Virus record (IMG/VR): IMGVR_UViG_3300028840_006907
Location: 32,001-96,000 of that record
Length of the DNA: 64,000 bases
Source: a virus
Direction: 5' to 3' (one strand)
A program made the translations under genes and the position numbers. Below, one piece after another: positions 32,442-52,045 of this stretch. How positions within the stretch are numbered: position 1 is the first letter of the stretch; each line of letters opens with the position of its first letter. The notes below the pieces were generated by a model, which was not told the DNA's origin, did no database searches, and was given only the letters and a program-made list of their open reading frames with translations.

Positions 32442-32469
32442 TATATAACAAATAAAGAAGGAGCTTTAT

Positions 32470-32751
32470 ATGAATTATGGTAATTCTGCTAGAAAAGCAT
32501 TATTTGGTAAAATTTATGGATCTCCTGGTGCAGATTGGGGTAAAGTACATGCTATATTAAAAAACAAAGAAGCATCAGAACGAAGATCGTCGTCATCTAG
32601 TAGTGGGGGTTGTACAGGAGGATATACCCCAACATTTACTCCTCGTGGACCTCGTACAGAGTTCGAAGAAGGGTTTAAAGGTAAATGCAAACATTGTAAT
32701 TATACAATTAATTTTCATACCCCTAAAAAGAAATGGTGCCCTCTATATTAA
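32470..32751 (+). CDS. hypothetical protein
   Basis: ORF track. Confidence 0.35.
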   Translation: MNYGNSARKALFGKIYGSPGADWGKVHAILKNKEASERRSSSSSSGGCTGGYTPTFTPRGPRTEFEEGFKGKCKHCNYTINFHTPKKKWCPLY

Positions 32752-32759
32752 AATAAGGA

Positions 32760-33410
32760 ATGTTAAAAATGTTATTAGAAACTGAATATTTATCATGTAT
32801 TTCTGAAATAAATCCTAATTTCGAAAAGATAATAGCTTTCCATAATTTAAAGGAATTAATAAATTTATATTCTGAGAGTTTCCGCATTTATCATAATTTG
32901 GATCACATCGAACATGGTTATACATTACTTGAAGAAGTAAAAAATTTGTGTGATGATTATTTTCTGGTTTTATATGCTTGGTTTTACCATGATTGTATAT
33001 ATGTGCCCAATGCTAAAAATATTAATGAAATAATCAGTGCTGATAGAGCTGTATTTGATGGATCTCGGTTAGGTTTTGGTATTGATGCAGTGAGGAAAAT
33101 TCGGAATTTAGTTATGGCAACGGAACATGTTAAACCCATGGTTAATACTAATGATGAGAAAATTATACATGATGTTGATCTAGCAATACTTGGAGCAAAT
33201 CCAGATGATTATGATAGTTATTCAAGTGATATTAGAAAAGAATACTGCATCTTTCCGTGGAATCAATATCGAGATGGGCGACTTTTTGCAATGAATACTT
33301 TTTTGAAATTAGATCAGATTTATTTTACTGATTATTTTAAAGACCTTTTTGAGAAGAGAGCCCGAGCGAACATAAAACGTGAGATGAAAGCAATAAGGGA
33401 AATAGGGTAA
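32760..33410 (+). CDS. putative HD-superfamily phosphohydrolase
   Basis: YHNLDH ... WFYHD ... HDVDLAILG pattern (His, HD, Asp) typical of small HD-domain proteins; from memory. Confidence 0.45.
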   Translation: MLKMLLETEYLSCISEINPNFEKIIAFHNLKELINLYSESFRIYHNLDHIEHGYTLLEEVKNLCDDYFLVLYAWFYHDCIYVPNAKNINEIISADRAVFDGSRLGFGIDAVRKIRNLVMATEHVKPMVNTNDEKIIHDVDLAILGANPDDYDSYSSDIRKEYCIFPWNQYRDGRLFAMNTFLKLDQIYFTDYFKDLFEKRARANIKREMKAIREIG

Positions 33411-34340: not shown

Positions 34341-37300
34341 ATGTACTCTATTGATGATTTTATTCAAACTGTTTTTTCATATACTCTTCAGAAACAGAAA
34401 TTCTTCGCAGCAGCAGAACGTGCTTTAAAGAAAAATCTCCAATCCTATATACGCCCCGACTTTTTCGGAACTAGTTCGGGAGATGTCCGACTAGATAATT
34501 TACTTGTATCTCTCGCCAATAGATTGGGTGAAGCTGATGTTGAAGATAAAAGAATTTTTCTTGAAGATGCAGTAAGTGATTTTGTCTCAGAAGAGAAGGC
34601 TGACGAGTTAAGAGCAATCCTTGAAACCAAATTGGAAAGAAAACATAAAATCCCTGAAGAACTAGCTGATAAATTTATCAGTAAATCAGGTTTACTTGTT
34701 GATGAAGAGAAAAAAGAATTTGATCGTGTGAAGAAAGATATGGTCAAATTGATCTCAGGTTTTATTTACGGTTTCTTCGAAAATAAATTTAAAGAATTTG
34801 TACGAGCAAAAAAGAAAAAAGAAGATATCGGTAGAGAAGTAGCCCCGGATCTAGAAGTCCTGCCTGATAGTGAATTAATTGATCAAGCTGAAAAAGAACA
34901 AGAATGGCAAGAAGGTTTAACTAAAGATCTGTTTGGATATATCAATAAAAATGTTCCGGAAAAAAGGCGCTATGCTTATAAAATGATCTTGTTAAAAAGA
35001 TTTATGGTAGCACCAGCTAGTAGGATGGGTTTTGTTGAAATGGCAGAAAAGACAGGAATACCCAAATCATCTCTGGAAGAATGGGAAAAAGATTTGGGCC
35101 GTAGACTTGCTGAATATCTCTCTGCAGGTGGCCTTGGCCCTAAATTCGTTAGTGAGGGTGGCCTTTATAAAAAAGATGTTAAAGTTCCCGATTATAAAGA
35201 TGTTTTTAAAAACAAAGAGAATTCGAATGATTTCAAAGATTTCATGGAAGGCAAACAACCAAAAACCGGTAAACCCATGAGTGAGAAGGTAAAAAAAATA
35301 TTAGAGTTGTTTGCTGAAGGTAAAGATACCAAGGAAATCGAATCACAGACTGATGCGAGTATTGGTCAGATAAAAAAATTAAAAAGTACTCATTTCTCTC
35401 CCTGGTATAAAGAGTGGTATGCTGAAATGCTTAAGGATGTCAGAGAAGCTACAGAACGTATAAAGAAAGCTCTTATGATAATTAATGGTGAGACACCTCC
35501 TCCAGCTTCTCATGAGAAATATGTGAATATGGCAATAGCTAAAAAATACCCTCTTGAACTTACTGTAACTTTTAGTGCCAATTATGATAACCAGGATTTA
35601 ATAAAGGAAAGTGATCGAGTTGATCCGGAAAAAGACCCGGTTGATTTTAAATACAAACATTACCAGGTAAAATTAGAAAGGACCAGTAGACCCCGAATTG
35701 AATATACTTTTGATCAAAAATTAACCGATAAAGGTGATTTTGAAGGTAGCCCTCGATCATCATTGGTCATTGAAGGAAATCCTGGTCATGAAGGTTTGAG
35801 AAGAAGGCTCGATGAATATGTCGAGCAAGAAATGAAACCAGAGGGTATCCTTCCTTACGGTCCTTCGGTAAAGGGTAGAAAACCTGTCCAGATCCCTGTT
35901 GAATATGTAAATGAATCTCTTGATAGTACTAAGACCTATGATGGGTCTAAAAAAAGAAGATATCGTGGATTTATTGATTTCGCTGACAAGTACAAAGGTT
36001 TCATGGTAAAAGACCAACCTCATTTAACCCGGGTTCAGGAAGAAAGTAAAAGGGAAGAGAAGAAATTGTTACCTAAGGGTGGAAAAAATGAAATTCGAAA
36101 ATTGATCCAGCATTTAAAAGAAAATATTGGTGATGAAATGGAAGAGACTACACCCGATAAGAAAAAAGTTGAGGTGTGGAAAAAACAGATTAAAGAATTA
36201 CAGGATCATTTGAAGAAAGATTCTGAAAAAGAAATAGTGGATTTTGTCTCAAAACATAAAGAGAGGTTTAAATTCGCTGTCTCTGAAGAGCGCATGAAAA
36301 ATGTTCGTGAATTGATGAAACTCAGAGAACTAGTAGAAAACCAAGAACAACGATTGTTACAAAGAAAAATGAAAGGTGATCCTAAAGATAAGGATACAGT
36401 TAAACTTAAAGAAGATATAGCAACAAATAAAGATAAAATCACTAAGCTCGAAAAAATCCTTGAAGAAACAAAAGAGCCATTTCCTCCACCAGAATCGGCT
36501 AAAGTTCAAAAGTTATTAAAGGAACTTTCTGATCTCGGTATTAAAGACAGAAAATTAGAAGAATTCCTGACTTCAACTGATCTCCAATTTTTTGTTAACC
36601 AGGTACAAGGTGCTCTGGCCAAGGAAGCACAAGATAATATCGCAGGTGTTAAGAAAAACAAAAATATGAGTGATGAGGAAAAGAAACAGGAATATGAAGC
36701 TATTGAGAGAAAACGTGGTGTAAAGCTGAATAAATTTATCGAGTTGTTTGAAGCTGTACCTGAAGACATGAAAAAACGTCTGGAGAAATATAAAAAGGCT
36801 GATCCCAGTGGGTATAAAAAATTAGAAAAGAAGCATGGGGCTCTTTTAAACTGGGTAAATAATCCTGAAAAAGCCCTCTCTAAAGTAAAACAGAATCTTT
36901 CTACACCGAAAACTCTTGAGGCTCCAAAAGGTAAACAGGAATCAGTGGTACCTATGGAGGAAGAGGATGCTAAATACATGCTCAATTGGCTTGAGGCCCA
37001 GTTACAGGGTTTCGATGTTATAGGAGAAAGATTTGGTCAGGCAGCTTTAAAAGCAGAAGGTTTAAGTCCACAAGAGAGAGTTAAGGTAGAAAAACAATTA
37101 AAAGATACAGAAAAAGAGTTTCAGGATTTACGAAATAGAATAGGTGAAATGGAAGGTAAAGGGAAGGCTACCACTAGTGAAATCAAAGATCTGAAAAAAG
37201 ACATACCGACTTATATGAGAACAATAGAAGGTTTAAAAAGTTCTCTTTCTGATTCAAAAGAATCTCCTGCTATGATTATGGCACAAGTTTTAACTGATCG

Positions 37301-38885
37301 ACTTTCTGATTTCACTAAAATGTACAATCCGTTATCAAAGACTTTATGGTTTAGCCCAAAAACCTATGAGAAGAGAGCAGAAATTGTTACCAGTGAAGAT
37401 GATCCAGCTTTAGCTTCATTGCAAAAGAACATTGCTAAGGATACAGTTTCATTTTCAAAACTCAGCATCTTCGATAAAGAATCCATTAGATCTCTGGCAA
37501 GTACCATCCGGTCAGGTTTATCAAAATTCAAAAAGGAGTTACCAAGAATGGCCTCTTTTAATCCAATCTATTTAACAGTAGAAGAAAAAGCCCTTATGGA
37601 TAAACAAGCTAAGGAAGAAGATCACTTTGAAAAACGTGTTAAATTTGTTTTTCCTGAAGGTGAATTGAATGATGCCAAAAATATGGTAACTCAGCTCAAA
37701 GAGAAGAAATTAGATGATGCATCGAAAAAAGCTCAGAAAGAATTATCAGAATTAATTAAAAATGTCACAAGTGCCTATGATGATTTCGATATAGGTAAAA
37801 TTAAAGCATTGGCAGAAAAAGAGGAGATTTCTGAATCAAAAGCTGCTGTTCGTTTAAAAAGAATAAAAGACTCATTGGCTAAATATGCTCTAAGTCAATT
37901 CATTCTTAAGTGGCAAGATGTCATAGACATGGGATTTAAAGATACTCCAAGAAAGAAAGGACCTTTGGGAGGACCGGAATCCCAAAAATATGATAAAATT
38001 TTGGAAATAATTGAAGAGGATGTACCTGAGTTATTTAAAGAGGCTCCTCCTGAGAAAGAAATAAAAGAAGCTCCTAAAGGCTTACCTACTCCTAAGGAAA
38101 TCAGAGAACGTATCGAAATGGAATTTGAAGAAGGATTTCCAGCACAAAAAGAAAGAGAATACAGAACTCTGAAGGACAAAGGTCATAAATTATTCAAAGA
38201 TCCTTCTGGGGCTGGTGGTGGCGGTGGCGGAAAAGGTAAAAGTCGCCCAAAACCTATAAAGAAACATCCTCCTGCCCATACATATGAAACACTTAAGAGT
38301 AATTTCAAAGAAGCTCTGAAAACAAAATCAGTTCATGACATAGTACTTAGTGAAATAGGCAGGTATTTACATAATGTGAGAAATTATGTGAAAGGTGGCT
38401 CTTATTTCGATGTGGATGATGTTGTTGCTGGAGTTGTCGATGTATTGAAAAATTTTAAAAAAGTCATCAAATCATTAAGAGTAACCATGGATCCAGGAGC
38501 TACTGCAGATATAAAACTGAAAGATGAAAAAGAGGCAAAACAACTTTTTAATAAATTATCAGATATTTACAAATTAATAGATATGATTGCTGCTGATGAA
38601 AGTGGGAAACCTGTTATAAAAATAGGTCCTATACCAGGTGATCTGAGTAAGATAAAAACTCAACGTGGTGAACCCGATACCTGGTTCCCGAAAGGTCTTA
38701 TGGAAGCTGTTCAAGTAAAAAAACGAGAAGAGATTGAAGAAGGAGCAAAAGAGAAAGCTCCTGAAAAGTCAGTTTCAGCAAAAAAAGTATCAGCACAATT
38801 TTTGGCTTTTAAATTAGCACATAAGTTTTCCTTTTCAGATTTACAAAAGATTGAAGGTCTGAAAGAAGATATAGATAAAAAATAA
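34341..38885 (+). CDS. giant K/E-rich protein (1514 aa), function unknown
   Basis: Single uninterrupted ORF; highly charged, probably largely helical; poly-Gly near C-terminus. Confidence 0.6.
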   Translation: MYSIDDFIQTVFSYTLQKQKFFAAAERALKKNLQSYIRPDFFGTSSGDVRLDNLLVSLANRLGEADVEDKRIFLEDAVSDFVSEEKADELRAILETKLERKHKIPEELADKFISKSGLLVDEEKKEFDRVKKDMVKLISGFIYGFFENKFKEFVRAKKKKEDIGREVAPDLEVLPDSELIDQAEKEQEWQEGLTKDLFGYINKNVPEKRRYAYKMILLKRFMVAPASRMGFVEMAEKTGIPKSSLEEWEKDLGRRLAEYLSAGGLGPKFVSEGGLYKKDVKVPDYKDVFKNKENSNDFKDFMEGKQPKTGKPMSEKVKKILELFAEGKDTKEIESQTDASIGQIKKLKSTHFSPWYKEWYAEMLKDVREATERIKKALMIINGETPPPASHEKYVNMAIAKKYPLELTVTFSANYDNQDLIKESDRVDPEKDPVDFKYKHYQVKLERTSRPRIEYTFDQKLTDKGDFEGSPRSSLVIEGNPGHEGLRRRLDEYVEQEMKPEGILPYGPSVKGRKPVQIPVEYVNESLDSTKTYDGSKKRRYRGFIDFADKYKGFMVKDQPHLTRVQEESKREEKKLLPKGGKNEIRKLIQHLKENIGDEMEETTPDKKKVEVWKKQIKELQDHLKKDSEKEIVDFVSKHKERFKFAVSEERMKNVRELMKLRELVENQEQRLLQRKMKGDPKDKDTVKLKEDIATNKDKITKLEKILEETKEPFPPPESAKVQKLLKELSDLGIKDRKLEEFLTSTDLQFFVNQVQGALAKEAQDNIAGVKKNKNMSDEEKKQEYEAIERKRGVKLNKFIELFEAVPEDMKKRLEKYKKADPSGYKKLEKKHGALLNWVNNPEKALSKVKQNLSTPKTLEAPKGKQESVVPMEEEDAKYMLNWLEAQLQGFDVIGERFGQAALKAEGLSPQERVKVEKQLKDTEKEFQDLRNRIGEMEGKGKATTSEIKDLKKDIPTYMRTIEGLKSSLSDSKESPAMIMAQVLTDRLSDFTKMYNPLSKTLWFSPKTYEKRAEIVTSEDDPALASLQKNIAKDTVSFSKLSIFDKESIRSLASTIRSGLSKFKKELPRMASFNPIYLTVEEKALMDKQAKEEDHFEKRVKFVFPEGELNDAKNMVTQLKEKKLDDASKKAQKELSELIKNVTSAYDDFDIGKIKALAEKEEISESKAAVRLKRIKDSLAKYALSQFILKWQDVIDMGFKDTPRKKGPLGGPESQKYDKILEIIEEDVPELFKEAPPEKEIKEAPKGLPTPKEIRERIEMEFEEGFPAQKEREYRTLKDKGHKLFKDPSGAGGGGGGKGKSRPKPIKKHPPAHTYETLKSNFKEALKTKSVHDIVLSEIGRYLHNVRNYVKGGSYFDVDDVVAGVVDVLKNFKKVIKSLRVTMDPGATADIKLKDEKEAKQLFNKLSDIYKLIDMIAADESGKPVIKIGPIPGDLSKIKTQRGEPDTWFPKGLMEAVQVKKREEIEEGAKEKAPEKSVSAKKVSAQFLAFKLAHKFSFSDLQKIEGLKEDIDKK

Positions 38886-38923: not shown

Positions 38924-39682
38924 TTGGAGACATCTGTGAAGTATAGCGTACTTGTACCCTACTATAAACGCCTAGGGCACCTACATAATACCTTTATTTC
39001 CTTTCTACACCATTATTCAGATAGAAATGATTATGAGGTTGTCATAGCAGAAGATTATAAAAATGTCCAGAATAAAAAAGACCATGACGGTCTATCAGAA
39101 ACCATTGAGAAATTCCGTGAAAAAATACCGATAATTCATTTAACTCTTTCTATGGAAACCTGGAATCCAGCTCATGGTTTTAATGAAGCTGCAAAGTGGG
39201 CTTCTGGTGAATATTTCGTTGTAACCAATCCAGAATGTTTCCATCAAGTGAACATACTGGCTGGACTCGATAAAGAATTTGAAGAAGACCCCAATGTCTA
39301 TGTTGTATGTGGTTGTATGAATTATGTCCGTTGTAATTTTTTTATTAAAAACTTTAATGATCTAAATGGAAAATTTCAGAGATGGTACCAACACTCAATA
39401 CATAGAGCAGCCCACTATCATTTCTGTTCAGCTATTTCAAAACAGAATTGGGTAAAAATAGGAGGATTCGATGAAGACTTTGCTATGGGTATAGCCTATG
39501 ATGATGTCGATTTTAAATTAAGCATTCAAAAAGCCAAGATACCCTTTCATATCCGGGATGACCTTCTTACTATACATATTGACCATGGTTCCTTCCCATC
39601 TCCTCCAAATGCTCAGAAATTAGTTAATCGAAATAGAATCACCTATCAAAGAAAATGGGAAGGAAGTAATGAATCTTACTAG
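38924..39682 (+). CDS. putative family-2 (GT-A) glycosyltransferase
   Basis: N-terminal YSVLVPYY and GGFDEDFAMGIAYDDVDF segments resemble GT2 signatures; start codon uncertain (TTG 38924 or GTG 38936). Confidence 0.5.
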   Translation: METSVKYSVLVPYYKRLGHLHNTFISFLHHYSDRNDYEVVIAEDYKNVQNKKDHDGLSETIEKFREKIPIIHLTLSMETWNPAHGFNEAAKWASGEYFVVTNPECFHQVNILAGLDKEFEEDPNVYVVCGCMNYVRCNFFIKNFNDLNGKFQRWYQHSIHRAAHYHFCSAISKQNWVKIGGFDEDFAMGIAYDDVDFKLSIQKAKIPFHIRDDLLTIHIDHGSFPSPPNAQKLVNRNRITYQRKWEGSNESY

Positions 39683-41762
39683 TTATACCGCAGCCGACAG
39701 TATCCCGATAAAATTGATTAAGAACTTTAAATTGTTAAAGTCCATGACAACAAAAGGAGTCATCTTACCAATCCATGTCCAGTTCATACCCACAAATAGA
39801 TGTAACATGAAATGTGGATTTTGTAGCTGTGCTGAAGATGACAGAAAAACAGAAATGTCCCTTAAAAATGCTAAGAAGATCATCAGAAAATTAAAAAAAC
39901 TCGGTACTCAATCCGTAACCATCACCGGAGGAGGAGAACCACTCCTTTATCCTCATCTCCAAGAATTGTTTTCTCTGTTTAAAGATGCCGGGATAAAAAT
40001 CGGTTTTGTTACCAATGGCCTCTTATTAGGTAAATGTACCTATGAAGATGTAACCTGGTGTCGGATTTCTAATTCTGATGAAAGAAAAATGGACATGGAC
40101 TATTATCACACAATAGCTTATGCTGTTGAAGATAACCCAAACGTGGACTGGGCCTTTAGTCATGTCGTTTCTCCAAAACCAAATATCTCCGAAATAAAAC
40201 GGATCATAGAATTTGCCAATCTCCATGATTTTACCCATGTCCGATTAGTAGCTGATCTATTGAATTATAAAGAAGTAGATTTAATGCAGTTAAAAATCAC
40301 TCTTCGAGATGAAAATGTCGATGATGATAAAGTCATCTATCAAAGTAGAAATACCCCGCTCAGAGGCGGAGACTGTTATATATGCTATCTTAAACCCATG
40401 ATAGGGGCTGACTGTAATGTGTACGCTTGTTGTTTAGAGGCTAATGAACCTGTATTAATCCAGAGAAATAACGAAAGGATGTATTTATCTATAAAGGATG
40501 TTGTTCCAGGGGATTATGCTTGTGAATATGGAAAGATTTTAAATGTGTTTCATAAAGAGGGTGAAGAAGGCTTGGAAATAGTTTTGCAAAATAATAGGAC
40601 TATTTATGTTTCGAAAGATCATCTTATGCTTAAATTGACAAACCCTGAAATTAGACATAAGAGAAAGAAGTTATTATCTGACTATGAATTAGATACAATA
40701 GAATCTTCTGAATTAAGAATTGGAGATTTACTTCCGGTCAAATATAAATATGATATTAGTGAAATAAAAGAAGATACTATATCTGAAGAAGAAGCAGAAT
40801 TAATAGGATATTATGTAGCTGAAGGTTGGTCCAATGAACGAACTTGTATAGTTGATAAAAAATATCCTACTAGAACTACCACTATAGGATTTATGCTAGG
40901 GAAAGAGTCAAGAGAATATATAAGAAGATTTGAAGAAATTTGTGATATTTTGAATCTAAATTTTTCTATGACTGAACGTAGAACTGGTATGCAGTATCAG
41001 ATAGGTGCACATAAACCCTACGATGACTTAATTGTACACTGTGGTAATAAAGCAGAATTAAAAAAGATCCCTCCTTTTATTTTAAACGGCTCTGATAAAA
41101 TAAAGTGGAAATTTATTCAAGGCTATTTTGGAGGTGACGGGAATTTTCAAACTCCTTCTAAAAGCTATGATGGTTTTAAAATGAGAATGAGTACTGTCAG
41201 TAGACAACTAGCTAATGATATAATTTATCTCTTTTGTACTTTAAATATTCATGCTTCTATGAGAGTTGAGAGACGTGAAGGAAAAATGATAATAGAAGGA
41301 AGAGAGGTAAATGCTAAAGATCGGTATCATATAAATATAGGGGGAGCCTATAATTTAGAAAAAGCCCCATTCCTAAATGTAATTCAAACAAAAGAAAGAA
41401 GTCCTAAAAGAGCCCTCGGTTTTTTGAAAGATGAGGATAAGGGCATTATGTTTGTACCAGTTAAAGAGATCAGAGAGAAAAAGTTAGGAAAATTAGTAGA
41501 CATTCAAGTGGAAGGTTCAAATAAATTTATATCTTCATTTGGTATAATAGTTCATAATTGTGGCGTCCAGTATGCTCTTAAAAAGCCTTCAAAGAATCTT
41601 CCTAAGAAACTGAGCCTAGGAAGTGCTTTTGATCTTGAGAAGATAATTGAGAACAGTAATAAGCCCCTGGACGGGAGCATGTGTTATCGATGCTATTATA
41701 GTAATTATAACAAGATACTAGGATCCATCCTGGATGATACCGATCATATGGAGTTTGTATGA
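39669..41762 (+). CDS. radical SAM enzyme interrupted by an intein
   Basis: CNMKCGFC (CxxxCxxC) and TGGGEPLL in N-extein; intein blocks described separately. Confidence 0.65.
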   Translation: MNLTSYTAADSIPIKLIKNFKLLKSMTTKGVILPIHVQFIPTNRCNMKCGFCSCAEDDRKTEMSLKNAKKIIRKLKKLGTQSVTITGGGEPLLYPHLQELFSLFKDAGIKIGFVTNGLLLGKCTYEDVTWCRISNSDERKMDMDYYHTIAYAVEDNPNVDWAFSHVVSPKPNISEIKRIIEFANLHDFTHVRLVADLLNYKEVDLMQLKITLRDENVDDDKVIYQSRNTPLRGGDCYICYLKPMIGADCNVYACCLEANEPVLIQRNNERMYLSIKDVVPGDYACEYGKILNVFHKEGEEGLEIVLQNNRTIYVSKDHLMLKLTNPEIRHKRKKLLSDYELDTIESSELRIGDLLPVKYKYDISEIKEDTISEEEAELIGYYVAEGWSNERTCIVDKKYPTRTTTIGFMLGKESREYIRRFEEICDILNLNFSMTERRTGMQYQIGAHKPYDDLIVHCGNKAELKKIPPFILNGSDKIKWKFIQGYFGGDGNFQTPSKSYDGFKMRMSTVSRQLANDIIYLFCTLNIHASMRVERREGKMIIEGREVNAKDRYHINIGGAYNLEKAPFLNVIQTKERSPKRALGFLKDEDKGIMFVPVKEIREKKLGKLVDIQVEGSNKFISSFGIIVHNCGVQYALKKPSKNLPKKLSLGSAFDLEKIIENSNKPLDGSMCYRCYYSNYNKILGSILDDTDHMEFV
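40431..41558 (+). mobile_element. intein with LAGLIDADG-type homing endonuclease domain (boundaries approximate; N-terminal Cys at 40428 or 40431)
   Basis: Starts CLEANEPVLI, ends GIIVHN followed by Cys; internal IGYYVAEGW and IQGYFGGDGNF motifs. Confidence 0.6.
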
Positions 41763-42310
41763 TCCGTTATAAAGAGATCTATGAACGAGTATTTGACATA
41801 CCTCATTATTCCAGAAACCAAGACCGAAAGATTACCTGTTCCCAAGTACATAACTATTTAATAGGAACTGAAAAATCTATCATTGATATAGGATCGGGGC
41901 GTGGGCCTGTTCTTATAGAACTGCTGAATCATTTTCAGAGATCTCAGATATTGTCTTGTGATTTAAAAAAGTTCCATGATATTGAAGTCCCGTTCCTGAA
42001 ACTGGATTTAACTGAGTTCAAGGATCGGGAAGCAATATTGAGGGTCTTTCCACAGTTTGATTTCTTAACCTGTTTTGATGTCCTGGAACATATCGAGCGA
42101 CAGGAATTGCACGCTATTCTCAGATTCTTTAAAGAGCTATCTAAAAAACATCTAATTATTGTAGCAAATCACTCTGATAACTGGGGCCAGGAATTACATT
42201 TAATACAGGAGCCCATGGACTGGTGGGAGGAAAGTTTTGGTGAATATTTTAAGATATTGGATAAAAAGAGTATTCATAATGATAGAGCGTATGTATTCCA
42301 TTTAGAATGA
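41759..42310 (+). CDS. class I SAM-dependent methyltransferase
   Basis: IIDIGSGRG (motif I) and FDVLEHIE. Confidence 0.6.
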   Translation: MIRYKEIYERVFDIPHYSRNQDRKITCSQVHNYLIGTEKSIIDIGSGRGPVLIELLNHFQRSQILSCDLKKFHDIEVPFLKLDLTEFKDREAILRVFPQFDFLTCFDVLEHIERQELHAILRFFKELSKKHLIIVANHSDNWGQELHLIQEPMDWWEESFGEYFKILDKKSIHNDRAYVFHLE

Positions 42311-42320
42311 GAGGTATAGG

Positions 42321-42572
42321 ATGTTTAAAGGACTGATCAATTCGATTAAGGAAGATAACGGTAATGCTTCTTCTACCAGATTTATTATGTATGGTACTGG
42401 AGCTGTTGTCTTAGGGACATATCTTTTTCATAACATACTTTCTGCAGTAAGAGGAGGAGAATTTATTGATTTCCCAGTAAACAGTGTCGTTGTTCTTGGT
42501 ATCGTTCTGACGGGTAAAGTTACACAGAAATTCGCTGAGTTTAAAGGTAGCAATGGGAAGACAGATGCTTAA
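42321..42572 (+). CDS. small membrane protein
   Basis: ORF track; two hydrophobic segments. Confidence 0.35.
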   Translation: MFKGLINSIKEDNGNASSTRFIMYGTGAVVLGTYLFHNILSAVRGGEFIDFPVNSVVVLGIVLTGKVTQKFAEFKGSNGKTDA

Positions 42573-42976
42573 GTTTCTTCGTGCTTTAAAGGAAAAAATA
42601 AAACCAGCAAATCCTACTCGTAGAAGTACTGTGATTAAATATTTAATGAGTCACCCTTTTGATAAACACACAAAATTAATCCCATTTGATAAATATTTAA
42701 AAAATATCCGGAAAAAGCATTCATGAAATGTCCCTTTATATAGAAGGAGATTGTCATGAATGTAATAAAACTAGAAGACTGCAGGAAATATTTCAAAGAT
42801 GAAGGAAATTTTAGGAAATTTGTGGAAACTTTTGGAAATTTTTTTAAAAAAGTTTCTCTTATCTTATCCTTGGTGATGATATTATAGGCACAACTTTAAC
42901 TCCTGAGTCCACCAAGGAATATATTATCGAAAGAATTTTAAAGAGGGAAGATATCCTGATAAAGGTTATAGAGGAG

Positions 42977-43540
42977 TTATAGGGATTTATTTGCGTGTGG
43001 AAAAGGTTTAACCACAATTTCTCGATCCAGGAACTTGCACAATGTTGCATATTTATTTTTATCTTCAATATCTATGAGTAGGAATCGGGGTTTGTCTTTG
43101 AAGAACTCTATGATTTCTTCATTCCTCTTATGGTATCGATCTATTATTTCAGCTTTGTTCTCTGGAATAAATTCAATCTTCCATATCCAGTTATACATGA
43201 CTTGTGCATTTTTTAATTGAATCCAATTTAAAACTGAGTTAAACCATTTCTCGGGATCCCGGGTCAAATGAATGAAGTAGGCATCGGGGAACATATCATA
43301 GAGCATTTCATGACTCCCTTCTAAATTGAAAGGGATATCACAAAATAAATTGGCTGTATATTTTCTTAATCGAAAAGCTTTAAAAAGTTGAATCATATTT
43401 TCTTTGGAATGTTTAAGTCCACCTCCAAGATAGAGTCCATATGCTTTAGTAGAGGGAATAGGGTTGAAACCAAGCTTTTTTATGGCTTGTTCCATAGAGG
43501 TTGTACCGGTTTTATTTGAGCCTATACAAAAGACTTTCAT
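42977..43540 (-). CDS. putative sulfotransferase
   Basis: GSNKTGTTS (PAPS 5-prime phosphate loop-like) and LTRDPEKWFNS (RDP motif). Confidence 0.55.
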   Translation of the reverse strand: MKVFCIGSNKTGTTSMEQAIKKLGFNPIPSTKAYGLYLGGGLKHSKENMIQLFKAFRLRKYTANLFCDIPFNLEGSHEMLYDMFPDAYFIHLTRDPEKWFNSVLNWIQLKNAQVMYNWIWKIEFIPENKAEIIDRYHKRNEEIIEFFKDKPRFLLIDIEDKNKYATLCKFLDREIVVKPFPHANKSL

Positions 43541-43617: not shown

Positions 43618-43983
43618 TCACGTGGTTACCGGCTTCTCTTTCTTTTTTAAGGTGCTTCTCAATTTCCTTGATCTGGTCTTGCATAAATTCTTTTTGTCGT
43701 CCCATTCTTCCAGACCTCCCTTATTGAGAGTATCATTTTTAAGCGTTAAGTTCAAGTCTCTTAATGACATACATGGAACATCCCGTACTCGTTTGGAGTT
43801 CCATATAGGGCATACAGTATGATTACACCTATTAGGACCTAACCTACACTCGACATTAAAATGTCCAGGTTCTCCGGCATAGAGGAAATTTCGTTCTATG
43901 CAGTGCGCCTGGAATACCTGAAAAGGCATTATCTTTTCGACACTTACCCCGTTTTTATGTGATTTATTATTCATATTTTTCAT
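43618..43983 (-). CDS. hypothetical Cys/His-rich protein (start moved out of CRISPR array)
   Basis: Track ORF 43618..44127 runs into array; ATG at 43981-43983. Confidence 0.3.
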   Translation of the reverse strand: MKNMNNKSHKNGVSVEKIMPFQVFQAHCIERNFLYAGEPGHFNVECRLGPNRCNHTVCPIWNSKRVRDVPCMSLRDLNLTLKNDTLNKGGLEEWDDKKNLCKTRSRKLRSTLKKKEKPVTT

Positions 43984-44019
43984 TCTAGGAATGTAAAGTA
44001 TTAGAGGATTATTAAGGGG

Positions 44020-47018
44020 AGGGAAACCCCGCTCAGATGCAGGGAAGAAGATTTCATTAAGAAGTTTTAGGAAGAGCCCCGCAGAGGAGGAACCTCGCAA
44101 GATGCGGGGAAAAGGAACTTCAGGCAATTGGCTGGGATTAGCCCCGCGAAGGTGCGGGGAAAACAGTTTCCATGAACTATATTAGGGAGAGCCCCGTTGA
44201 CACGGGGAAAAACCCGTCTTTACTTAGTGAGATCGAGGAAGGAACAGCCCCGTTGATACGGGGATAAAATAATATGACTTTTACGAATCCTCTAGGGACA
44301 GCCCTGCAGAGTGCAGGGAAAAGTAACGTCTGGGAATTGTTTAGGATTAGCCCCGCGAAGGTGCGGGGAAAGCCATAGATTTTATATTGACACAGGAAAA
44401 ACCCCGGTATAGTCCGGGGAAAAGTACGTAATCAAGATGTAAGAGGATTAGACCCGGCGAGTCCGGGAAAAGATTGGCCCAATCACTATTAAGTAGGGTG
44501 GGATAGCCCCGCAGAATGCAGGGAATAGATGCCTCACTTCATACCACTGCGTCAACCCCAGTAGAGTCCGGGGAACATGAGTGTAAATCTCTGTCGTAGG
44601 TTCAACCCCGGAGAGATCCAGGGGAAATGGGTACAACTTTGTGTACAAGGGGTAGCCCCGGAGAAATCCGAGGAAAATGAGTGTAAATCTGTGTTGAGGG
44701 TCCAGCCCCGCTCAGTGCAGGGAATATTAAGGGTCAAAACCGGTTGCCCCTGCGTCAACCCCGGTGAAGTCCGGGGAACATGAGTGTAAATCTCTGTGGT
44801 AGGATCAACCCCGCAGAGTGCAGGGAAAAATTGAACTTTTTAATCAACCCTGTAACAGCCCCGGAGTCAGTTTTGACAAGTCCGGGGGAATATCACTTCG
44901 TAAAGGAGTGGCTGTCAAGGGGGCAACCCCACAGAGATGTGGGGGAAAGTAAGCCAACGTTCCGGCATAGGCATAGCCCCTGAATTTACAGAGGGCAATT
45001 TTTCCAGTGTCCAGAAGAAGATGCAGGGAGAACCCCGGAAAGTCCAGGGGAAAATGTGTCACAGAACAACTCTTTGTGATCTCCAGGGTGAACCTCGCAG
45101 AGGTGCGGGGGAAAAGTGTCAATGAATACCAGTATGAGTCAGCCCCGGTATAGCCCGGGAATAATTACTTCTAGTCTGATAGAAGGTGCAACCCCGGGAA
45201 GTCCGGGGAAATCGGTCATAGCCATCTGGACCAGGAAGAACCCCGGTGAGATCCGGGGAAAAGGACGTTTAAATCCTGACATAGTAGCTAACTGAGGCGT
45301 AGCTCCGGTCGGGTCAGCCCTGCAGAGAGCAGGGAACAAACATAGGTAATAAATCGGCACGTGACAGCCCCGCAGAGAGGCGGGGATATATAGCGTGAGT
45401 TGCAGGGTAAGGTTCAACCCTTGTTTACCAAGGGAAAAATACCGGCAGATAAGAATTTAGGATGACCCCCGGTGAAAGTCCGGGGAAAATAATTAATACG
45501 CAAAACAGCAGGGCCAGTCCCGCGAGATGCAGGGAATGTTCAGCCAGTTTGTGTAATATTTCAGGAGACGGTGGTGCAACCCTGTCAAGGACAGGGATAT
45601 GCAACATCTGTGGCTCTACGAGGATCAGCCCCGGCAAGTCCGGGGAATTATCTTTTTATAAATGCCAAAAATAACAGTTGGGAGGGGCCAATTCCGCTGA
45701 TGCAGAAAGACATTTCATAATTAATATATTTATGGAAGAGCCCCGGTGAAATCCGGGGAAGTCAAGTAATTACAGCTCGCTGACCACTGGGGGTAGCCCC
45801 GGTAAGATCCGGGGAAAAGTTTGTTTTGAAACAAACGCTAGGAACAGCCCCGCTCAGGTGCGGGAGAATCACTGCATATTTGGTTAATGGCCCCCCTGAG
45901 TCAATCCCGCTCAGGTGCGGGGAAAATAAAGAGATAGACTAATTCAATATGCAGGAAGAACCCCGCTATATGCAGGAAAATTTAAAAAGTATGGATATCT
46001 CCTTGAGTCAACCCCGGAGATCCAGGGAAATGTAGGCACTCGTTGTCCTTTGTCGAAGTGTGAAGGGCAAACCTCGTTGATACGAGGAACAAATTTAGTT
46101 TTACTTTTGAATAAAAGTGGTCAAGCCCCGCTCAGGTGCAGGGAATAGATAAGTATACCGACGATAGCCAGGACAGCACCTGTGGTTTAGCCCTGCATGT
46201 GCAGGGAATAGTTGAGTTGAAGATTGAAGAAAAAGATAAAGTAGGGTCAGCTCTGCATGTGCAGAGAATAGCCTTTCTTCAAGCGTTGACTTGGGAGTAG
46301 GTGGGGATCAGCCCTGCACATGCAGGGAATAGAATGGTGAATCAAATTCCATTTTGTCAAAGAACGGCGACAGCCCTGCCAGTGCAGGGAATATGATTTT
46401 AACGATGGTAAAATTGGGAAGGGGTCAGCCCTGCACATGCAGGGAATAGTCGCTAGTTCAAATCCAATCGCCCCGACAGGATCAGCCCTGCATACGCAGG
46501 GAATAGAAAATACTGACGATAAACTAGCGATATGGGATCAGCCCTGCATACGCAGGGATATAGCTTGACGAATGGCCGTTTTAATGCCAGGAGTAACCCC
46601 GCTGCGAGGAATAGTCATTTCAAATATATAGGTAAAGCCCCGCGAAAGAGCGGGGGTATAATATGGCGGATTTTGTTCTATTGGTGGAATCCGGGCCATC
46701 CCCGTAGATTGACACGGGGAGATCTTTTAGAAATCTACCAAGGTGCCTTTCCGGAGTCATCCCCGTATATACGGGGGAGATTTCAATTCAGGGAATTTCG
46801 GTACAAAATTGGTCGGTTTATCCCCGTATACACGGGGAATATTGTTTCAATAGGGCATAGCAGATCTAGGATCGGGGAATCCCCGCAGGGGCGGGGAACA
46901 TCTCGGATTTATTAATCAAATTCAAACGTTTTTCGGGGAATCCCCGCAGGGGCGGGGAACATTGTTTTAAGAGGTGGTAGTTACCTCGTAGGGGAATCCC
47001 CGCAGGGGCGGGGAACAT
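44020..47018 (-). CRISPR. CRISPR array 1, roughly 50 repeat-like units, strongly heterogeneous; leader-proximal repeat ggggaatccccgcaggggcggggaacat (28 nt, 3 identical copies)
   Basis: Periodic hairpin repeats with 23-33 nt spacers; leader-proximal copies at 46874, 46935, 46991; minus-strand reading matches the I-E TTCCCCGC-N4-GCGGGGAT form. Confidence 0.8.
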
Positions 47019-47127
47019 ACTAAGTCATAATGCCATTCAAATCAAAGGTTTATAGGAACCCTAATTTTCTACCAAAGAAAAATGTACTTGTCATGTATAA
47101 ATGTCAAAGAGCGTCAGAGAGAAATCC
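47019..47127 (-). promoter_or_regulatory. CRISPR leader 1, with a ~55-bp core shared with leader 2
   Basis: accctaattttctaccaaa...tataaatgtcaaagagc shared with 54587..54683; contains TTGACA on minus strand. Confidence 0.5.
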
Positions 47128-49359
47128 CTAGTGGATATACCGAATCCATTCATATCGAATTTTCATCGTTTTATAAGGAGCTTTTTTTCTCCCTGGAAAT
47201 ATGTTTCCTTCAAAAAGGAAAAATTTTTGAACAATTTTAAATTCAGCGTTTGATGGTGTCAAGCTCTGTGGTGCATAATCCGAACGCCAGTAATTATTAC
47301 AATATATAAATTTTTCTTCTCTGTCTTTTTGTATAAGGCCCGGAAACACCACTAAAACTATCTTTTCGTTTTCAATAACAATATCCCCTTGATAAATAGC
47401 TATTTCTAAATCCAGACCATCCTGCTCTATCACACGAGCATATTTCGAGAGTTTCCCATCAATCTTTACTTTAGCTTTAGGGGGAATATCAAAAGTTATC
47501 CATTCACCTTTTATGTCCTTAATGCTTTGAATAGGTTTTTTAACTGGAATTTCTTGAAAGACATGATCTTGGTATTCTGCTTTTTTAAGGATTTCTCCAT
47601 CTTTTTCCATATTAAGCAATAAAGCCTTTTCCATGATGTCTTTAAGTTCATAGAGATCTTTTTCAGTTAAGGGCTCTTTTGTTCCGAATACGATGGAACC
47701 TACATTCTCTAATCGAGCGATTTTATCAAAACCCTGTTTCCGGACAAAGTCTATGGTAATATGTTCTATTTTTCTATTTCTTGAAAGTCTTATGATTCTT
47801 ACAAATTCAGTTTTAATTGTGTCTTTGAAATTATCAAAACTTAAATGATCTTCTACGTAGGGATGATACAAATCCGCTATAAGACTTAATAAAATTTCTA
47901 TGTCTTCAGGTTTATCCTGTTTACGGTTGTAATCATAAGCTTTAATAATTTCTTGTCTCATTTCCATTAATATATCAGGAGCCATTATTTCACTTAAACT
48001 GGTAGATCCTTTTTTGTCCCGATAAAAGGGAGCTGTTGGAAGTAAGGGAATCCTGATAGCAGCACAAAGTTCTGACATTACAATTGAGGTTAAGAACAAA
48101 TTCAATCTGTCTGAATATAATGCCCTGATATTATTACGTTCTTCTTTTTTAATAGGTGGAACATAAATGTATAACCATATTTTATCTTTTTTAGGGTAAC
48201 ATCTGAAAATACGAAACATTATTTGAGAGAAGGTCACCTGACTCTTTCCATAACTTGTATTATGTAAAACAGCAGCAGGAGGCCAATCATACCCTTCATA
48301 GAATATTCTGCAAGATACGGCGACCCAGTATTTTTTATGATTACGTCTCAATAACTCTCTATTTTTTTTCTGAGTTTCCGGTGTGACTAAATCCAGTACT
48401 TTGGACGCAGGATATATTTCGTGAATAGCTTTTAAATATTTTTTAAGGGTTCCTTCCTCTCTGAACCGGTTCCCCATGTCAGGTAATATGACAATGTGTC
48501 TTTGATCTTTGTGCTCTTTCATATATCTAATGATCTGAGTAAGGGGATCTTTCCTATAGTGAGTGAAACGGAAATTGAATTCTTTGATTTTTATGATTGA
48601 GAGATAGTCATTTAATGGGATAACCCATTTTTCAAAATGATGTTTATAAGCATTGGGGACTATTTCTCCTCTGTCTGTGCGGTGGTAAGTAGCTGTATAA
48701 AAATTTACGTTACAAGTAGGTTCATGGATGGTACATACATCTCTGACAAAATCACCCAAATGAGTGGAATCTAGTGGGGTTGATTTTGAATGATGGCATT
48801 CATCTACATGTACAGTTAAATTTCTAAGGGCTTTCTTTTTTTCATAGTTGGTTAATTTTTCCCAGGTCATGACAAACCCTCTATGGGTAGCTGTAGCAAT
48901 AGGGCCTGTTATATGTTTTTCATTGTACGGGTATTTTCGAGGATCTGCTAAAAGGAATTCTTTAAGTCCTTTAATGGATTGAGGGTTTTCACTATTGAAT
49001 TTATGTTCTTTTGGTACTTCCCACAATCTTACCATACCTTTATATTTGATTTTTATTTGTCTATTTTGGGATCTGCAGAAATTTTCACCTATTTCTATTG
49101 TTGGTGCGATAAAGATATGTTTTCGAGTATTTTTAGATATTATGATTTCATCCAGGGATATGCATACTGCTAAAAAAGTTTTGCCGACTCCCCCTGGTGC
49201 ATCAAAGATCATGTATCTGAATTTTTTCCCATATTCTTTTGCATTGCATTGCCAGCCAGAGGGTATCATGATCCCTGATTCAAGTTTTTTATTATAGGTA
49301 CCAAGGTCAACCGGTTCTATTTTAATAGATTGCTGGAAAAGCGGTAATAGCTTTTTCAT
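47128..49359 (-). CDS. cas3: SF2 DExH helicase, Cas3-like, without HD nuclease domain
   Basis: Motif I FDAPGGVGKT, motif II VDECHH, motif III TAT, motif VI-like QIMFRIFR; sits between cas6e and leader 1; GAGAGGA SD. Confidence 0.5.
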   Translation of the reverse strand: MKKLLPLFQQSIKIEPVDLGTYNKKLESGIMIPSGWQCNAKEYGKKFRYMIFDAPGGVGKTFLAVCISLDEIIISKNTRKHIFIAPTIEIGENFCRSQNRQIKIKYKGMVRLWEVPKEHKFNSENPQSIKGLKEFLLADPRKYPYNEKHITGPIATATHRGFVMTWEKLTNYEKKKALRNLTVHVDECHHSKSTPLDSTHLGDFVRDVCTIHEPTCNVNFYTATYHRTDRGEIVPNAYKHHFEKWVIPLNDYLSIIKIKEFNFRFTHYRKDPLTQIIRYMKEHKDQRHIVILPDMGNRFREEGTLKKYLKAIHEIYPASKVLDLVTPETQKKNRELLRRNHKKYWVAVSCRIFYEGYDWPPAAVLHNTSYGKSQVTFSQIMFRIFRCYPKKDKIWLYIYVPPIKKEERNNIRALYSDRLNLFLTSIVMSELCAAIRIPLLPTAPFYRDKKGSTSLSEIMAPDILMEMRQEIIKAYDYNRKQDKPEDIEILLSLIADLYHPYVEDHLSFDNFKDTIKTEFVRIIRLSRNRKIEHITIDFVRKQGFDKIARLENVGSIVFGTKEPLTEKDLYELKDIMEKALLLNMEKDGEILKKAEYQDHVFQEIPVKKPIQSIKDIKGEWITFDIPPKAKVKIDGKLSKYARVIEQDGLDLEIAIYQGDIVIENEKIVLVVFPGLIQKDREEKFIYCNNYWRSDYAPQSLTPSNAEFKIVQKFFLFEGNIFPGRKKAPYKTMKIRYEWIRYIH

Positions 49360-49444
49360 TGTCTTTTTCCTCTCAAATAAGTCCTGGAAAGCCTTTTCAG
49401 GGGCTTTCCAGGATTAATGTACTGTGTATTCTATATCAACACTT

Positions 49445-49600
49445 TCAATCGTTTTTATCAATCTCCGTGGCTAATACCGACATAAATGACATTCCGGTTC
49501 CTCCTGGTAATTCAATAATAGAAGGTCTTTTGATGTTCTCTTCTAAATTCCTAGAAGCGAGTTGCCAAGAATAGGCTTTTATAGTTTTTGTATTATTCAT
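49445..49600 (-). CDS. small ORF (51 aa) between cas6e and helicase, unknown
   Basis: ATG at 49598-49600 with TGGAGA SD; no motif. Confidence 0.25.
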   Translation of the reverse strand: MNNTKTIKAYSWQLASRNLEENIKRPSIIELPGGTGMSFMSVLATEIDKND

Positions 49601-49628
49601 TTTAAAATCTCCATATAAAAGGTTTATT

Positions 49629-50273
49629 TTAATAAGATTTATACGGTGCAATAAGCATCATACCACATCCGAAACCTTTACTCTTACCAATTCCATTATA
49701 AATAGTATTCACAAAAAGATTTTTATTGACTACCTGAAGGACTCCTCGTAAATCAATACTGAAAAAAGATACAACTTTACCATCTTTTTTTTTGAATTTA
49801 CAGAATTGAAAAGATTGAACGGAATGCTTTTGAATCATATTTTTAAAACCGTAACTTTGGCCACGTTTCTGAAGCCAATTCTTTGAGGATTCGTGAGCAA
49901 TGAAATTCCAATTATAGGGTTCATCAAGAACTTTCATTTCATTTGCCAGATCCGTCATGATTGAAACCTTTTTCCTGGTTTTCAATTTACAAACTTCGGC
50001 ATTGAGTCTGAGATCGTATTGAAGAAATATTCCAGATTTTAAATTATTTAAATCGAATACTTTTGTTTGTGTAGTGTATTCGTCCTCTGGAGGATTTGGT
50101 TTCTTTTTTGATATGATATAAAGTTCACCATTATAGAGATAATAAAGGAAATCTCTTACCCTGTTAGATCTTTGATCACCAAAAAATTCCCAGACTTTTT
50201 GATGAAGCTCATATATACCTTCGGTGGGAGAATATCTTCTCAAGCTGTCACTGTAAATTTTACTCAGAAACAT
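49629..50273 (-). CDS. cas6e: Cas6e (CasE) crRNA endoribonuclease
   Basis: MFLSKIYSD..YELHQKVWEFF..RDFLYY and C-terminal GIGKSKGFGCGMM match recollected E. coli CasE; start moved to ATG 50273. Confidence 0.75.
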   Translation of the reverse strand: MFLSKIYSDSLRRYSPTEGIYELHQKVWEFFGDQRSNRVRDFLYYLYNGELYIISKKKPNPPEDEYTTQTKVFDLNNLKSGIFLQYDLRLNAEVCKLKTRKKVSIMTDLANEMKVLDEPYNWNFIAHESSKNWLQKRGQSYGFKNMIQKHSVQSFQFCKFKKKDGKVVSFFSIDLRGVLQVVNKNLFVNTIYNGIGKSKGFGCGMMLIAPYKSY

Positions 50274-50910: not shown

Positions 50911-50933
50911 AATATTATAACTCCTGGTAACAA

Positions 50934-52019: not shown

Positions 52020-52045
52020 AAATACTCCTTGATATTTATTATTTA

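Follow-up and report, generated by a model that had tools for sequence, protein, structure and literature searches.

In this study we analyzed a 64,000-nucleotide (nt) stretch of viral DNA, positions 32,001 to 96,000 of IMG/VR record IMGVR_UViG_3300028840_006907 (the whole stretch is called the window below), focusing on a gene cassette at window positions 38,924 to 43,540. The cassette encodes a glycosyltransferase of family 2 (GT2), a radical S-adenosylmethionine (SAM) enzyme, a SAM-dependent methyltransferase and a sulfotransferase. The radical SAM gene is interrupted by an intein, its product is not a viperin, and the association of radical SAM, GT2, methyltransferase and sulfotransferase genes recurs, with placements in O-antigen clusters and in head-tail operons. 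Because of the family relations of the radical SAM enzyme and the genomic context of its family, we consider it probable that the cassette acts in glycan chemistry and not in the chemistry of nucleotides, DNA or viperins. Tentatively, we read it as a cytoplasmic cassette that would make a tailored, methylated and sulfated glycan with a phage (virion) protein as acceptor.

The cassette region is identical to a stretch of a 388,651-bp contig from the Joint Genome Institute (JGI) metagenome 3300017963 (Ga0180437_10000019), and its host appears to be a very large phage-like element (the 388-kb contig), whose phage status we infer. A TIGR03299/DUF932-like "phage/plasmid-like protein" encoded in the window, with about 500 GenBank phage matches, supports a mobile-element or phage origin.

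Gene content of the cassette and the intein in the radical SAM gene

A first-pass annotation, made from the letters of the DNA without database searches, had proposed four enzyme genes at this location, three of them translationally coupled directly after a protein of 1514 amino acids (aa), with a sulfotransferase-like gene converging from the other strand. The listing of open reading frames (ORFs) and the profile searches bear out this layout (Table 1): the GT2 gene begins 39-51 nt past the stop codon of the 1514-aa ORF, the GT2 and radical SAM genes overlap by 14 nt, the radical SAM and methyltransferase genes overlap by 4 nt (ATGA), and the gene on the minus strand has a clear Sulfotransfer_4 match. 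What the annotation overlooked is the intein within the radical SAM ORF.

In this ORF, Pfam detected LAGLIDADG_3 (E=1.6e-08; 35.1 bits against a threshold of 22.5) and Intein_splicing (E=4.1e-08), the latter at 33.6 bits, just below the gathering score of 35.8. Sequence features of an intein were found, namely canonical splice-site motifs (...NVYAC/CLEANEP...GIIVHN/CGVQYA..., where the slash marks the junction) with Cys1 at C255, a terminal HN (N630) and a +1 Cys at C631, a block B (SKDH), two LAGLIDADG motifs (LIGYYVAEGW and FIQGYFGGDGN), and a host protein that is restored on excision. The insertion point lies exactly between the invariant C254 and C255 of the radical SAM protein, and removal of the intein leaves 321 aa, which align over 99-100% of their length to 886 homologues that lack an intein (322-330 aa); the closest of these shows 73% identity. 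The GC content of the intein is 0.309, compared with 0.37 and 0.39 for the exteins. Owing to the intein, the length of the 697-aa ORF is misleading for a family of about 325 aa, and automated annotation would misjudge the gene. Since the splice junction rebuilds the conserved CC motif, the enzyme is predicted to be active only after splicing.

Inteins at the same site were also identified in other members of the family. Two IMG/VR contigs (L149/L150), one of them from the same JGI sample as the window, carry an intein with 42% identity to that of the window inside a radical SAM gene that is itself 42% identical, and those of two further homologues (P0216 and P0217) are 56% and 51% identical to the window intein, so that at least four diverged host genes share the allele at this position. 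Additionally, nine of the 150 best radical SAM cluster representatives are 666-727 aa long and match the family in two stretches. Their insertions lie at the CC site in seven cases (P0221, P0238, P0248, P0258, P0276, P0309 and P0347), as in the window, in the TGGGE SAM-binding motif in one (P0224) and inside CxxxCxxC in one (P0262). The family thus appears to be a recurrent intein target with three insertion sites, all of them in invariant motifs.

Two starts can be considered for the GT2 gene, GTG at 38936 (248 aa) and TTG at 38924 (252 aa). The GTG is most likely the correct one, because it lies 5 nt after a GGAGA Shine-Dalgarno sequence and gives the same 248-aa product as the JGI call (P0121). 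The protein scores above the PF00535 threshold, has a GT-A fold with acidic metal/nucleotide-binding motifs and contains no hydrophobic segment; no tblastn match at E<=1e-3 was found for it among 50,697 GenBank phage records. The methyltransferase carries a standard SAM motif (IIDIGSGRG), but profile and PDB searches assigned it to no specific family. Its homologues are located directly 3' of the radical SAM gene in several viral loci and in one Nitrospirae metagenome-assembled genome (MAG), and in locus L096 a sulfotransferase domain is joined to a homologue with 32% identity. The sulfotransferase reaches 88.8 bits with Sulfotransfer_4 (threshold 22.8), and motifs for binding 3'-phosphoadenosine 5'-phosphosulfate (PAPS) could be read from its sequence, a 5'-phosphosulfate-binding-like GSNKTGTTS and a 3'-phosphate-binding-like LTRDPEKWFNS. 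PDB sequence searches with the GT2, the methyltransferase and the sulfotransferase returned nothing informative. Transmembrane segments are absent from all four enzymes, and the cassette contains no flippase, polymerase or lipid-carrier transferase gene. Promoter and terminator scans over 34-44.2 kb gave a signal no higher than the shuffled expectation.

The radical SAM family and its viperin-like motif

The radical SAM protein scores above the gathering score of PF04055 and has a GGE-type SAM motif, as expected for the superfamily. The cluster motif CNMKCGFC at aa 45-52 (C45-x3-C49-x2-C52) is invariant in the family, which has further invariant motifs of its own (SYTAAD, WCRIS, DWAFSHV, FTHVR, CYICYLKP, ACCG and CxKCYYxNYN) and a conserved Cys-rich C-terminus (C236, C254, C255, C296 and C299). 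A profile search of 1.84 billion cluster representatives at 50% identity identified 370 proteins at E<=1e-30, the mean column identity of the family is 60%, and a functional name for it was found in none of the sources searched. Such tight conservation would be more in keeping with a common small molecule as substrate than with a protein specific to phages. In GenBank phage records only weak matches (<=28% identity) were found, and BFVD contained no close structural relative (TM <=0.57).

All NCBIfam, PADLOC and PDB sequence matches of the spliced protein are limited to residues ~30-127, that is, to the generic core; the best PDB sequence match is SuiB, and none of the 71 NCBIfam matches comes near its cutoff. 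None of the SPASM/twitch models of Pfam and NCBIfam reaches its threshold, and the conserved C-terminal cysteines are present. For the fold search we used a model of the 73% identical, intein-free homologue P0001 in place of the window protein. The matches of this model were led by DesII (19.7), SkfB (19.5) and BlsE (19.0), followed by SuiB (17.6), MoaA (17.6) and Viperin (17.3), and the fold also resembles PqqE, anSME and BtrN. DesII and BlsE, which act on sugar nucleotides or nucleoside sugars, are thus among the top matches, in favor of a glycan cassette. Judging from this model, the protein is probably a twitch/SPASM-like enzyme whose nearest solved relatives include two tailors of nucleotide-linked sugars, a likeness that is not decisive.

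The cluster loop of viperins is CNYKCGFC, and the first-pass annotation had pointed out this resemblance; a viperin-like enzyme would make chain-terminating 3'-deoxy-3',4'-didehydro (ddh) nucleotides. Viperin and prokaryotic viperin (pVip) models do match the spliced protein, with E ~1e-13 to 1e-15, but the aligned residues (~36-126) belong to the portion common to all radical SAM enzymes, and the resemblance of the two loops is that of a generic radical SAM cluster loop: CxxxCxxC occurs throughout the superfamily and has no diagnostic value. With the viperin family model NF038283 the protein reaches 49.7 bits, where the cutoff is 180, and the alignment spans residues 37-126 only, and the PADLOC pVip models cover only 87-90 of their 257-262 positions. 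Models of MoaA and of tungsten-cofactor maturases score slightly higher than those of viperin, and SPASM models score as well or better. Neither a viperin-type C-terminal nucleotide-binding extension free of an auxiliary cluster nor a neighboring nucleotide kinase was identified, and we know of no conserved Cys-rich C-terminal domain in viperins. At the family level the viperin-like reading is effectively refuted, and we regard it as extremely improbable for the window protein. It is important to mention this false lead because the motif might otherwise spread as an "antiviral" annotation.

A second radical SAM ORF in the window, of 239 aa and unrelated to that of the cassette, adjoins an esterase/lipase-like gene and has PHROG radical-SAM matches (Table 1). 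Since this unrelated ORF yields the same partial pVip match, the pVip signal is unspecific.

Hypermodification of the phage DNA or of the nucleotide pool to evade restriction or CRISPR, for example by glycosylation and methylation of a modified base, was also considered. The decoration of DNA by phage glycosyltransferases is well established (reviewed in PMC12619734) and provides a precedent, and a CRISPR-Cas system of its own adjoins the cassette. The spliced protein weakly matches QueE models, yet at 42 bits against a cutoff of 260 and over the generic core only. QueE itself is a radical SAM enzyme acting in 7-deazaguanine DNA modification. Among the cassette and flanking ORFs tested there is no hydroxymethylase, thymidylate-synthase-like protein, DpdA/TGT, aGPT-Pplase or nucleotide kinase, and the related islands described below lie in head-tail operons, not in replication modules. 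We also know of no sulfotransferase or adenosine 5'-phosphosulfate (APS) kinase in the described DNA-modification pathways. Taken together, we consider a role in DNA modification very improbable.

A third candidate is a peptide or protein maturase of the kind that acts on ribosomally made peptides with post-translational modifications (RiPPs; sactipeptide/SPASM type), with partner enzymes decorating the peptide or a side chain, for example by tyrosine sulfation. SuiB as the best PDB sequence match would fit this role, as would the small ORF that follows the methyltransferase gene and the similarity of one phage sulfotransferase family (STc8) to protein-tyrosine sulfotransferases, which is faint and non-significant (E 0.03-0.1). 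The maturase matches are, however, confined to the generic core mentioned above, the N-terminal extension of the protein comprises only ~35 residues and holds no RiPP recognition element (RRE) or PqqD-like leader-binding domain, no conserved precursor-peptide gene was found across the radical SAM loci, and the bacterial homologues are embedded in polysaccharide clusters. A maturase therefore seems improbable to us.

Genomic contexts of the family and the acceptor of the putative glycan

Only five true members of the family were found in species-representative genomes, in MAGs of Nitrospirae, Geobacteraceae, Deltaproteobacteria and Cloacimonadota and in Geotalea toluenoxydans. On a 342-kb contig (GCA_964649725.1; loci L003/L004) the radical SAM gene lies within an O-polysaccharide-type cluster beside thrS-infC, together with Wzm/Wzt-like ATP-binding cassette (ABC) transporter genes, four GT2, three GT4 and one GT9 genes and methyltransferase genes; another bacterial contig (L002) carries a radical SAM-GT2 pair. 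The GT2 subfamily found in the window, which we call phage-type, was seen only in metagenomic or viral contexts or on prophage-like MAG contigs, not in bacterial O-antigen clusters. The radical SAM protein thus falls in a family unrelated to viperins with neighbors in cell-wall-type pathways, which is essentially the outcome that the first-pass annotation had itself named as telling against its proposal.

In viruses, a relative of the radical SAM enzyme is encoded on 155 IMG/VR stretches. The ORFs within 7 kb were clustered in 89 loci and the cluster representatives were annotated; the following counts are from the 80 viral loci. A GT2 33-50% identical to that of the window is present in 32 and a methyltransferase in 42; sulfotransferases, from three different Pfam families, occur in 18, a short-chain dehydrogenase/reductase (SDR) epimerase/dehydratase in eight and an APS kinase in four. 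In a siphovirus-like lineage the genes for portal, head morphogenesis, protease/scaffold, decoration and major capsid protein (MCP) are followed by an island of glycosyltransferase/methyltransferase genes, radical SAM, methyltransferase, GT2 and sulfotransferase, and then by connector, Neck1, major tail and tape measure protein genes, an arrangement observed in 15 loci. In a second lineage the tail terminator and major tail protein genes flank a radical SAM-methyltransferase-GT2 block.

The analysis was extended by an MCP-anchored sample of 80 further IMG/VR loci (L165-L244), 49 of which hold both MCP and connector; IMG/VR contains roughly 540 relatives of the MCP. The gap between these two genes measures 1.1-9.5 kb (median 4.7 kb) and contains glycosyltransferase/methyltransferase genes in 47 of the 49 loci, sometimes with an APS kinase. 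A Sulfotransfer_3-type gene is found in the gap in 45 loci, directly before the connector in 41, and a radical SAM gene and a window-type GT2 in six and eight loci, respectively. Nearly every sampled member of this lineage carries an island, which suggests a lineage-wide sulfation or glycosylation tied to the head module. Gene fusions (loci L096, L110, L084 and L102) would also tie sulfotransferase, methyltransferase and glycosyltransferase activities together: we found a sulfotransferase-methyltransferase protein of 425 aa (L096, 8970..10247), a methyltransferase-GT2-methyltransferase protein of 657 aa, and three-domain glycosyltransferase proteins of 775-964 aa in which the window-type GT2 is joined to Gly_transf_sug (DXD) domains.

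The relatives nearest to the window form a clade of huge elements, represented by the closest syntenic relative (L001) and a 512-kb relative (L245), in which a giant ORF, GT2, radical SAM, an ORF-poor region and a ResIII helicase with Cascade genes follow each other. The conservation of the GT2-radical SAM core after the giant ORF in both of them also speaks for a glycan cassette. The radical SAM gene of L001 has no intein and the locus no methyltransferase, and the sulfotransferase lies at the same place as in the window with 65% identity. In L245 the sulfotransferase is missing, and a Methyltransf_24 gene lies upstream.

On these grounds we propose the following mechanism, in which we infer the radical SAM chemistry, the succession of the reactions and the acceptor. 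The 697-aa precursor would be translated and the intein would splice itself out, joining two invariant cysteines of a C-terminal Fe-S (twitch-like) domain. The mature 321-aa enzyme would then carry out a radical tailoring of a sugar, most likely a nucleotide-activated one, with oxidation, dehydration/deoxygenation, epimerisation and decarboxylation as candidate reactions. The partner GT2 would move a sugar onto the acceptor, and the methyltransferase may contribute a methyl group and the PAPS-dependent sulfotransferase a sulfate. The likeliest acceptor would be a virion protein made in the same cell, which would thereby receive a methylated, sulfated surface glycan.

A virion acceptor is favored because the gene set is embedded in head-tail operons of several lineages, beside capsid and tail-tube genes, and because the enzymes are soluble and come without export or lipid-carrier machinery; the mycobacteriophages discussed below offer a precedent. 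As the main rival reading, the same chemistry could instead act on a host envelope polysaccharide, that is, an O-antigen or a capsule assembled in the cytoplasm on undecaprenyl phosphate, and the remodeled cell surface would exclude superinfecting phages or stop progeny from re-adsorbing. We hold this rather unlikely, although several observations are in its favor. The bacterial members of the family are found in ABC-transporter-dependent O-polysaccharide clusters; in Wzm/Wzt pathways assembly of the chain and its terminal modification both take place in the cytoplasm, within possible reach of soluble phage enzymes. Modification of the host surface is also the usual interpretation of phage glycosyltransferases (PMC7029224). 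Against a host acceptor stand the lack of GtrA/GtrC-type proteins, flippase, polymerase or membrane-bound transferase, and the organization of the islands, which in several unrelated phage lineages belong to head-tail operons, densely packed and in the same orientation. Moreover, the near-universal sulfotransferase of one lineage (45/49) resembles a virion trait rather than a host-specific accessory, and the phage-type GT2 subfamily is absent from the bacterial O-antigen clusters seen.

Several points weigh against a glycan cassette acting on the virion. The cassette of the window is not flanked by recognizable structural genes, so that the case for the virion rests on the relatives, and no capsid, portal or terminase match was found among the 30 window ORFs tested. 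Late-operon positions are also classic and frequent sites of host-acting morons, which, like the missing structural flanks, would suit the host envelope. The 1514-aa neighbor matched nothing in Pfam and PHROG searches and leaves the cassette beside an unannotated gene. The sulfotransferase and the methyltransferase are not conserved across L001 and L245, in the fold search the peptide-modifying SkfB and SuiB match no less strongly than the sugar enzymes do, and the GT-A fold neighbors of the GT2 fit protein and polysaccharide acceptors alike.

Among the candidate roles listed in the first-pass annotation, a glycan or a virion/host surface component is thus supported by the O-antigen clusters and the phage islands, and nothing pointed to modification of nucleotides or hypermodification of DNA. 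If the glycan interpretation is true, sulfated and methylated virion or surface glycans would carry virion glycosylation beyond the mycobacteriophages to many environmental phages, with a bearing on adsorption, immune/defense evasion and particle stability. A broader proposal, which we regard as doubtful, is that many environmental tailed phages carry an undescribed, hypervariable island in the head-tail operon that coats the virion with diverse methylated and sulfated glycans, and that the cassette represents this widespread trait in a huge phage. Such an island, of 1-9.5 kb, would lie between the MCP and connector genes or beside the tail-tube gene, and its unusual sugar would come from a dedicated twitch-type radical SAM enzyme that bacterial O-antigen pathways also possess. 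Virion glycosylation/sulfation would then be common outside the mycobacteriophages, and the family would constitute both a novel kind of radical enzyme for carbohydrate tailoring and a recurrent intein target. In any case, this uncharacterised family is both abundant and conserved and forms a link between phage islands and the synthesis of bacterial O-antigen.

Flanking features and comparison with known systems

Table 1. Positions of the cassette genes and of other features in the window
Feature	Position	Strand	Basis or remark
TIGR03299/DUF932-like protein (region)	14878..16008	-	
HNH/HD genes (region)	31839..33410	+	
1514-aa Lys/Glu-rich protein	34341..38885	+	directly upstream of GT2; ORF listing
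GT2-family (GT-A fold) glycosyltransferase, soluble	38936..39682	+	Pfam Glycos_transf_2 E=3.7e-09
Radical SAM precursor ORF, 697 aa (N-extein, intein, C-extein)	39669..41762	+	Pfam Radical_SAM E=4.6e-16
Intein with LAGLIDADG homing endonuclease, 376 aa (aa 255-630)	40431..41558	+	Pfam and boundary motifs
Class I SAM-dependent methyltransferase, 183 aa	41759..42310	+	Methyltransf_23 E=2.3e-08; Methyltransf_12 E=5.6e-07
Small protein, 83 aa, two moderately hydrophobic stretches	42321..42572	+	ORF listing
PAPS-type sulfotransferase, 187 aa	42977..43540	-	Sulfotransfer_4 E=5.7e-25; Sulfotransfer_3 E=9.6e-09
169-aa TTG-initiated ORF	43618..44127	-	overlaps first hairpin units
Hairpin repeat region, ORF-poor	44000..47050	+	GC 0.50 vs 0.33
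Type I-E Cascade genes	47128..53989	-	adjoin the array
Second radical SAM ORF, 239 aa	61306..62025	-	PHROG radical-SAM matches
Esterase/lipase-like gene	62184..62873	-	

The 1514-aa protein is rich in Lys (15%) and Glu (11%) and has a Gly run near residue 1292; its sole detected homologue is a 1540-aa protein of L001. Large ORFs precede the GT2-radical SAM pair elsewhere as well, namely a 1779-aa ORF upstream of the cassette in L245 and giant ORFs of 1183-1442 aa, unrelated in sequence, in L151/L155/L158; no similarity was found between the 1514-aa protein and the large ORFs before the pair in other lineages. Upstream of the 1514-aa ORF, genes for an HNH endonuclease (200 aa) and an HD-type phosphohydrolase (216 aa) are present, both of which are kept in L001. 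The 83-aa ORF between the methyltransferase and sulfotransferase genes is also kept in L001 (phmmer 3.9e-32); the maximum Kyte-Doolittle value of its product over a 19-residue window is 1.57, and family searches with it gave no significant match.

Downstream of the cassette, the hairpin repeat region contains ~55 copies of the unit (A)GCCCCGC-n4-8-GCGGGGAA(A/T), spaced 49-62 nt apart. Perfect 6-bp GC-rich hairpins number 29 in 3.7 kb, compared with eight in the other 60.3 kb of the window, and the stems vary between copies with compensatory changes (CCCCGC, CCCTGC, CCCCGG and CCCCGT). Identical repeats of the type I-E-like kind, with ~32-nt spacers, are confined to the final three units (46872..47018). 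The region had no match in Rfam and looks like either a CRISPR array with extraordinarily heterogeneous repeats or a Cas6e-type hairpin array. The adjoining genes encode type I-E Cse1/Cas8e (647 aa), Cas7e (CT1975), Cas5e and Cas6e, and a 743-aa ResIII/DEAD helicase, in which Pfam detects no HD nuclease domain, occupies the position of Cas3; L001 and L245 show the same arrangement. Neither cas1 nor cas2 was seen among the ORFs tested. No family match was obtained for the 169-aa ORF that overlaps the first hairpin units, but L001 encodes a homologue of it in the corresponding location (phmmer 2e-45); it could be a genuine small gene, or else conserved array/leader DNA could have produced a spurious ORF.

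When compared with known systems, the intein resembles the LAGLIDADG inteins of phage and archaeal genes in its Cys1...His-Asn/Cys+1 boundaries, its two LAGLIDADG motifs, its insertion at an invariant motif and the recurrence of the allele at one site in diverged host genes of one sample, and differs from them in its host protein, a member of an uncharacterised radical SAM family in which three conserved motifs are targeted. The radical SAM enzyme itself has among its top fold matches DesII (TDP-4-amino-4,6-dideoxy-D-glucose deaminase) and BlsE (cytosylglucuronate decarboxylase), both of which act on nucleotide-linked sugars. The identity to them is only 15-17% with sequence similarity confined to the generic core, and the window enzyme has its own invariant motifs and Cys-rich C-terminus. 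Also close is the subgroup of the twitch/SPASM enzymes (SkfB, SuiB, PqqE, anSME, BtrN and SpeY), from which it is set apart by a family-specific cysteine spacing (C236, C254-C255, C296-x2-C299) and by the absence of an RRE domain. With viperins and pVips it has in common the radical SAM core, a similar cluster loop and anti-viral or viral contexts; the failed models with ~90 aligned residues, the different C-terminal domain, the glycan-related context and the lack of a kinase partner distinguish it from them.

Among phage glycan systems, serotype conversion (GtrABC, O-acetylases) and the phage "lipopolysaccharide" auxiliary genes are similar in that glycan-modifying enzymes are phage-borne. 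At 34-44 kb of the window, however, there is no GtrA flippase, membrane-anchored GtrB-type GT2 or GtrC, and the radical SAM islands are multi-enzyme assemblies inside morphogenesis operons, with enzymes that are soluble in the window. To our knowledge, virion glycosylation has been demonstrated only in mycobacteriophages, and we know of no radical SAM enzyme, sulfotransferase or APS kinase in that system. Capsid and tail-tube subunits of mycobacteriophages are reported to bear glycans added by phage glycosyltransferases (Freeman et al. 2023, as cited in PMC12619734). The likeness lies in soluble phage glycosyltransferases accompanied by methyltransferases and, in the relatives of the window, in genes located beside MCP and major tail genes; a further difference is that the window GT2 has no tblastn match among the GenBank phage records. 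In the literature we found no description of this radical SAM family or of a phage island combining radical SAM, glycosyltransferase, methyltransferase and sulfotransferase genes. The individual enzyme classes, and phage glycan modification as an idea, are already known; new are the combination with a dedicated twitch-type radical SAM enzyme and with sulfation, its recurrence in morphogenesis operons and the targeting of the radical SAM gene by inteins.

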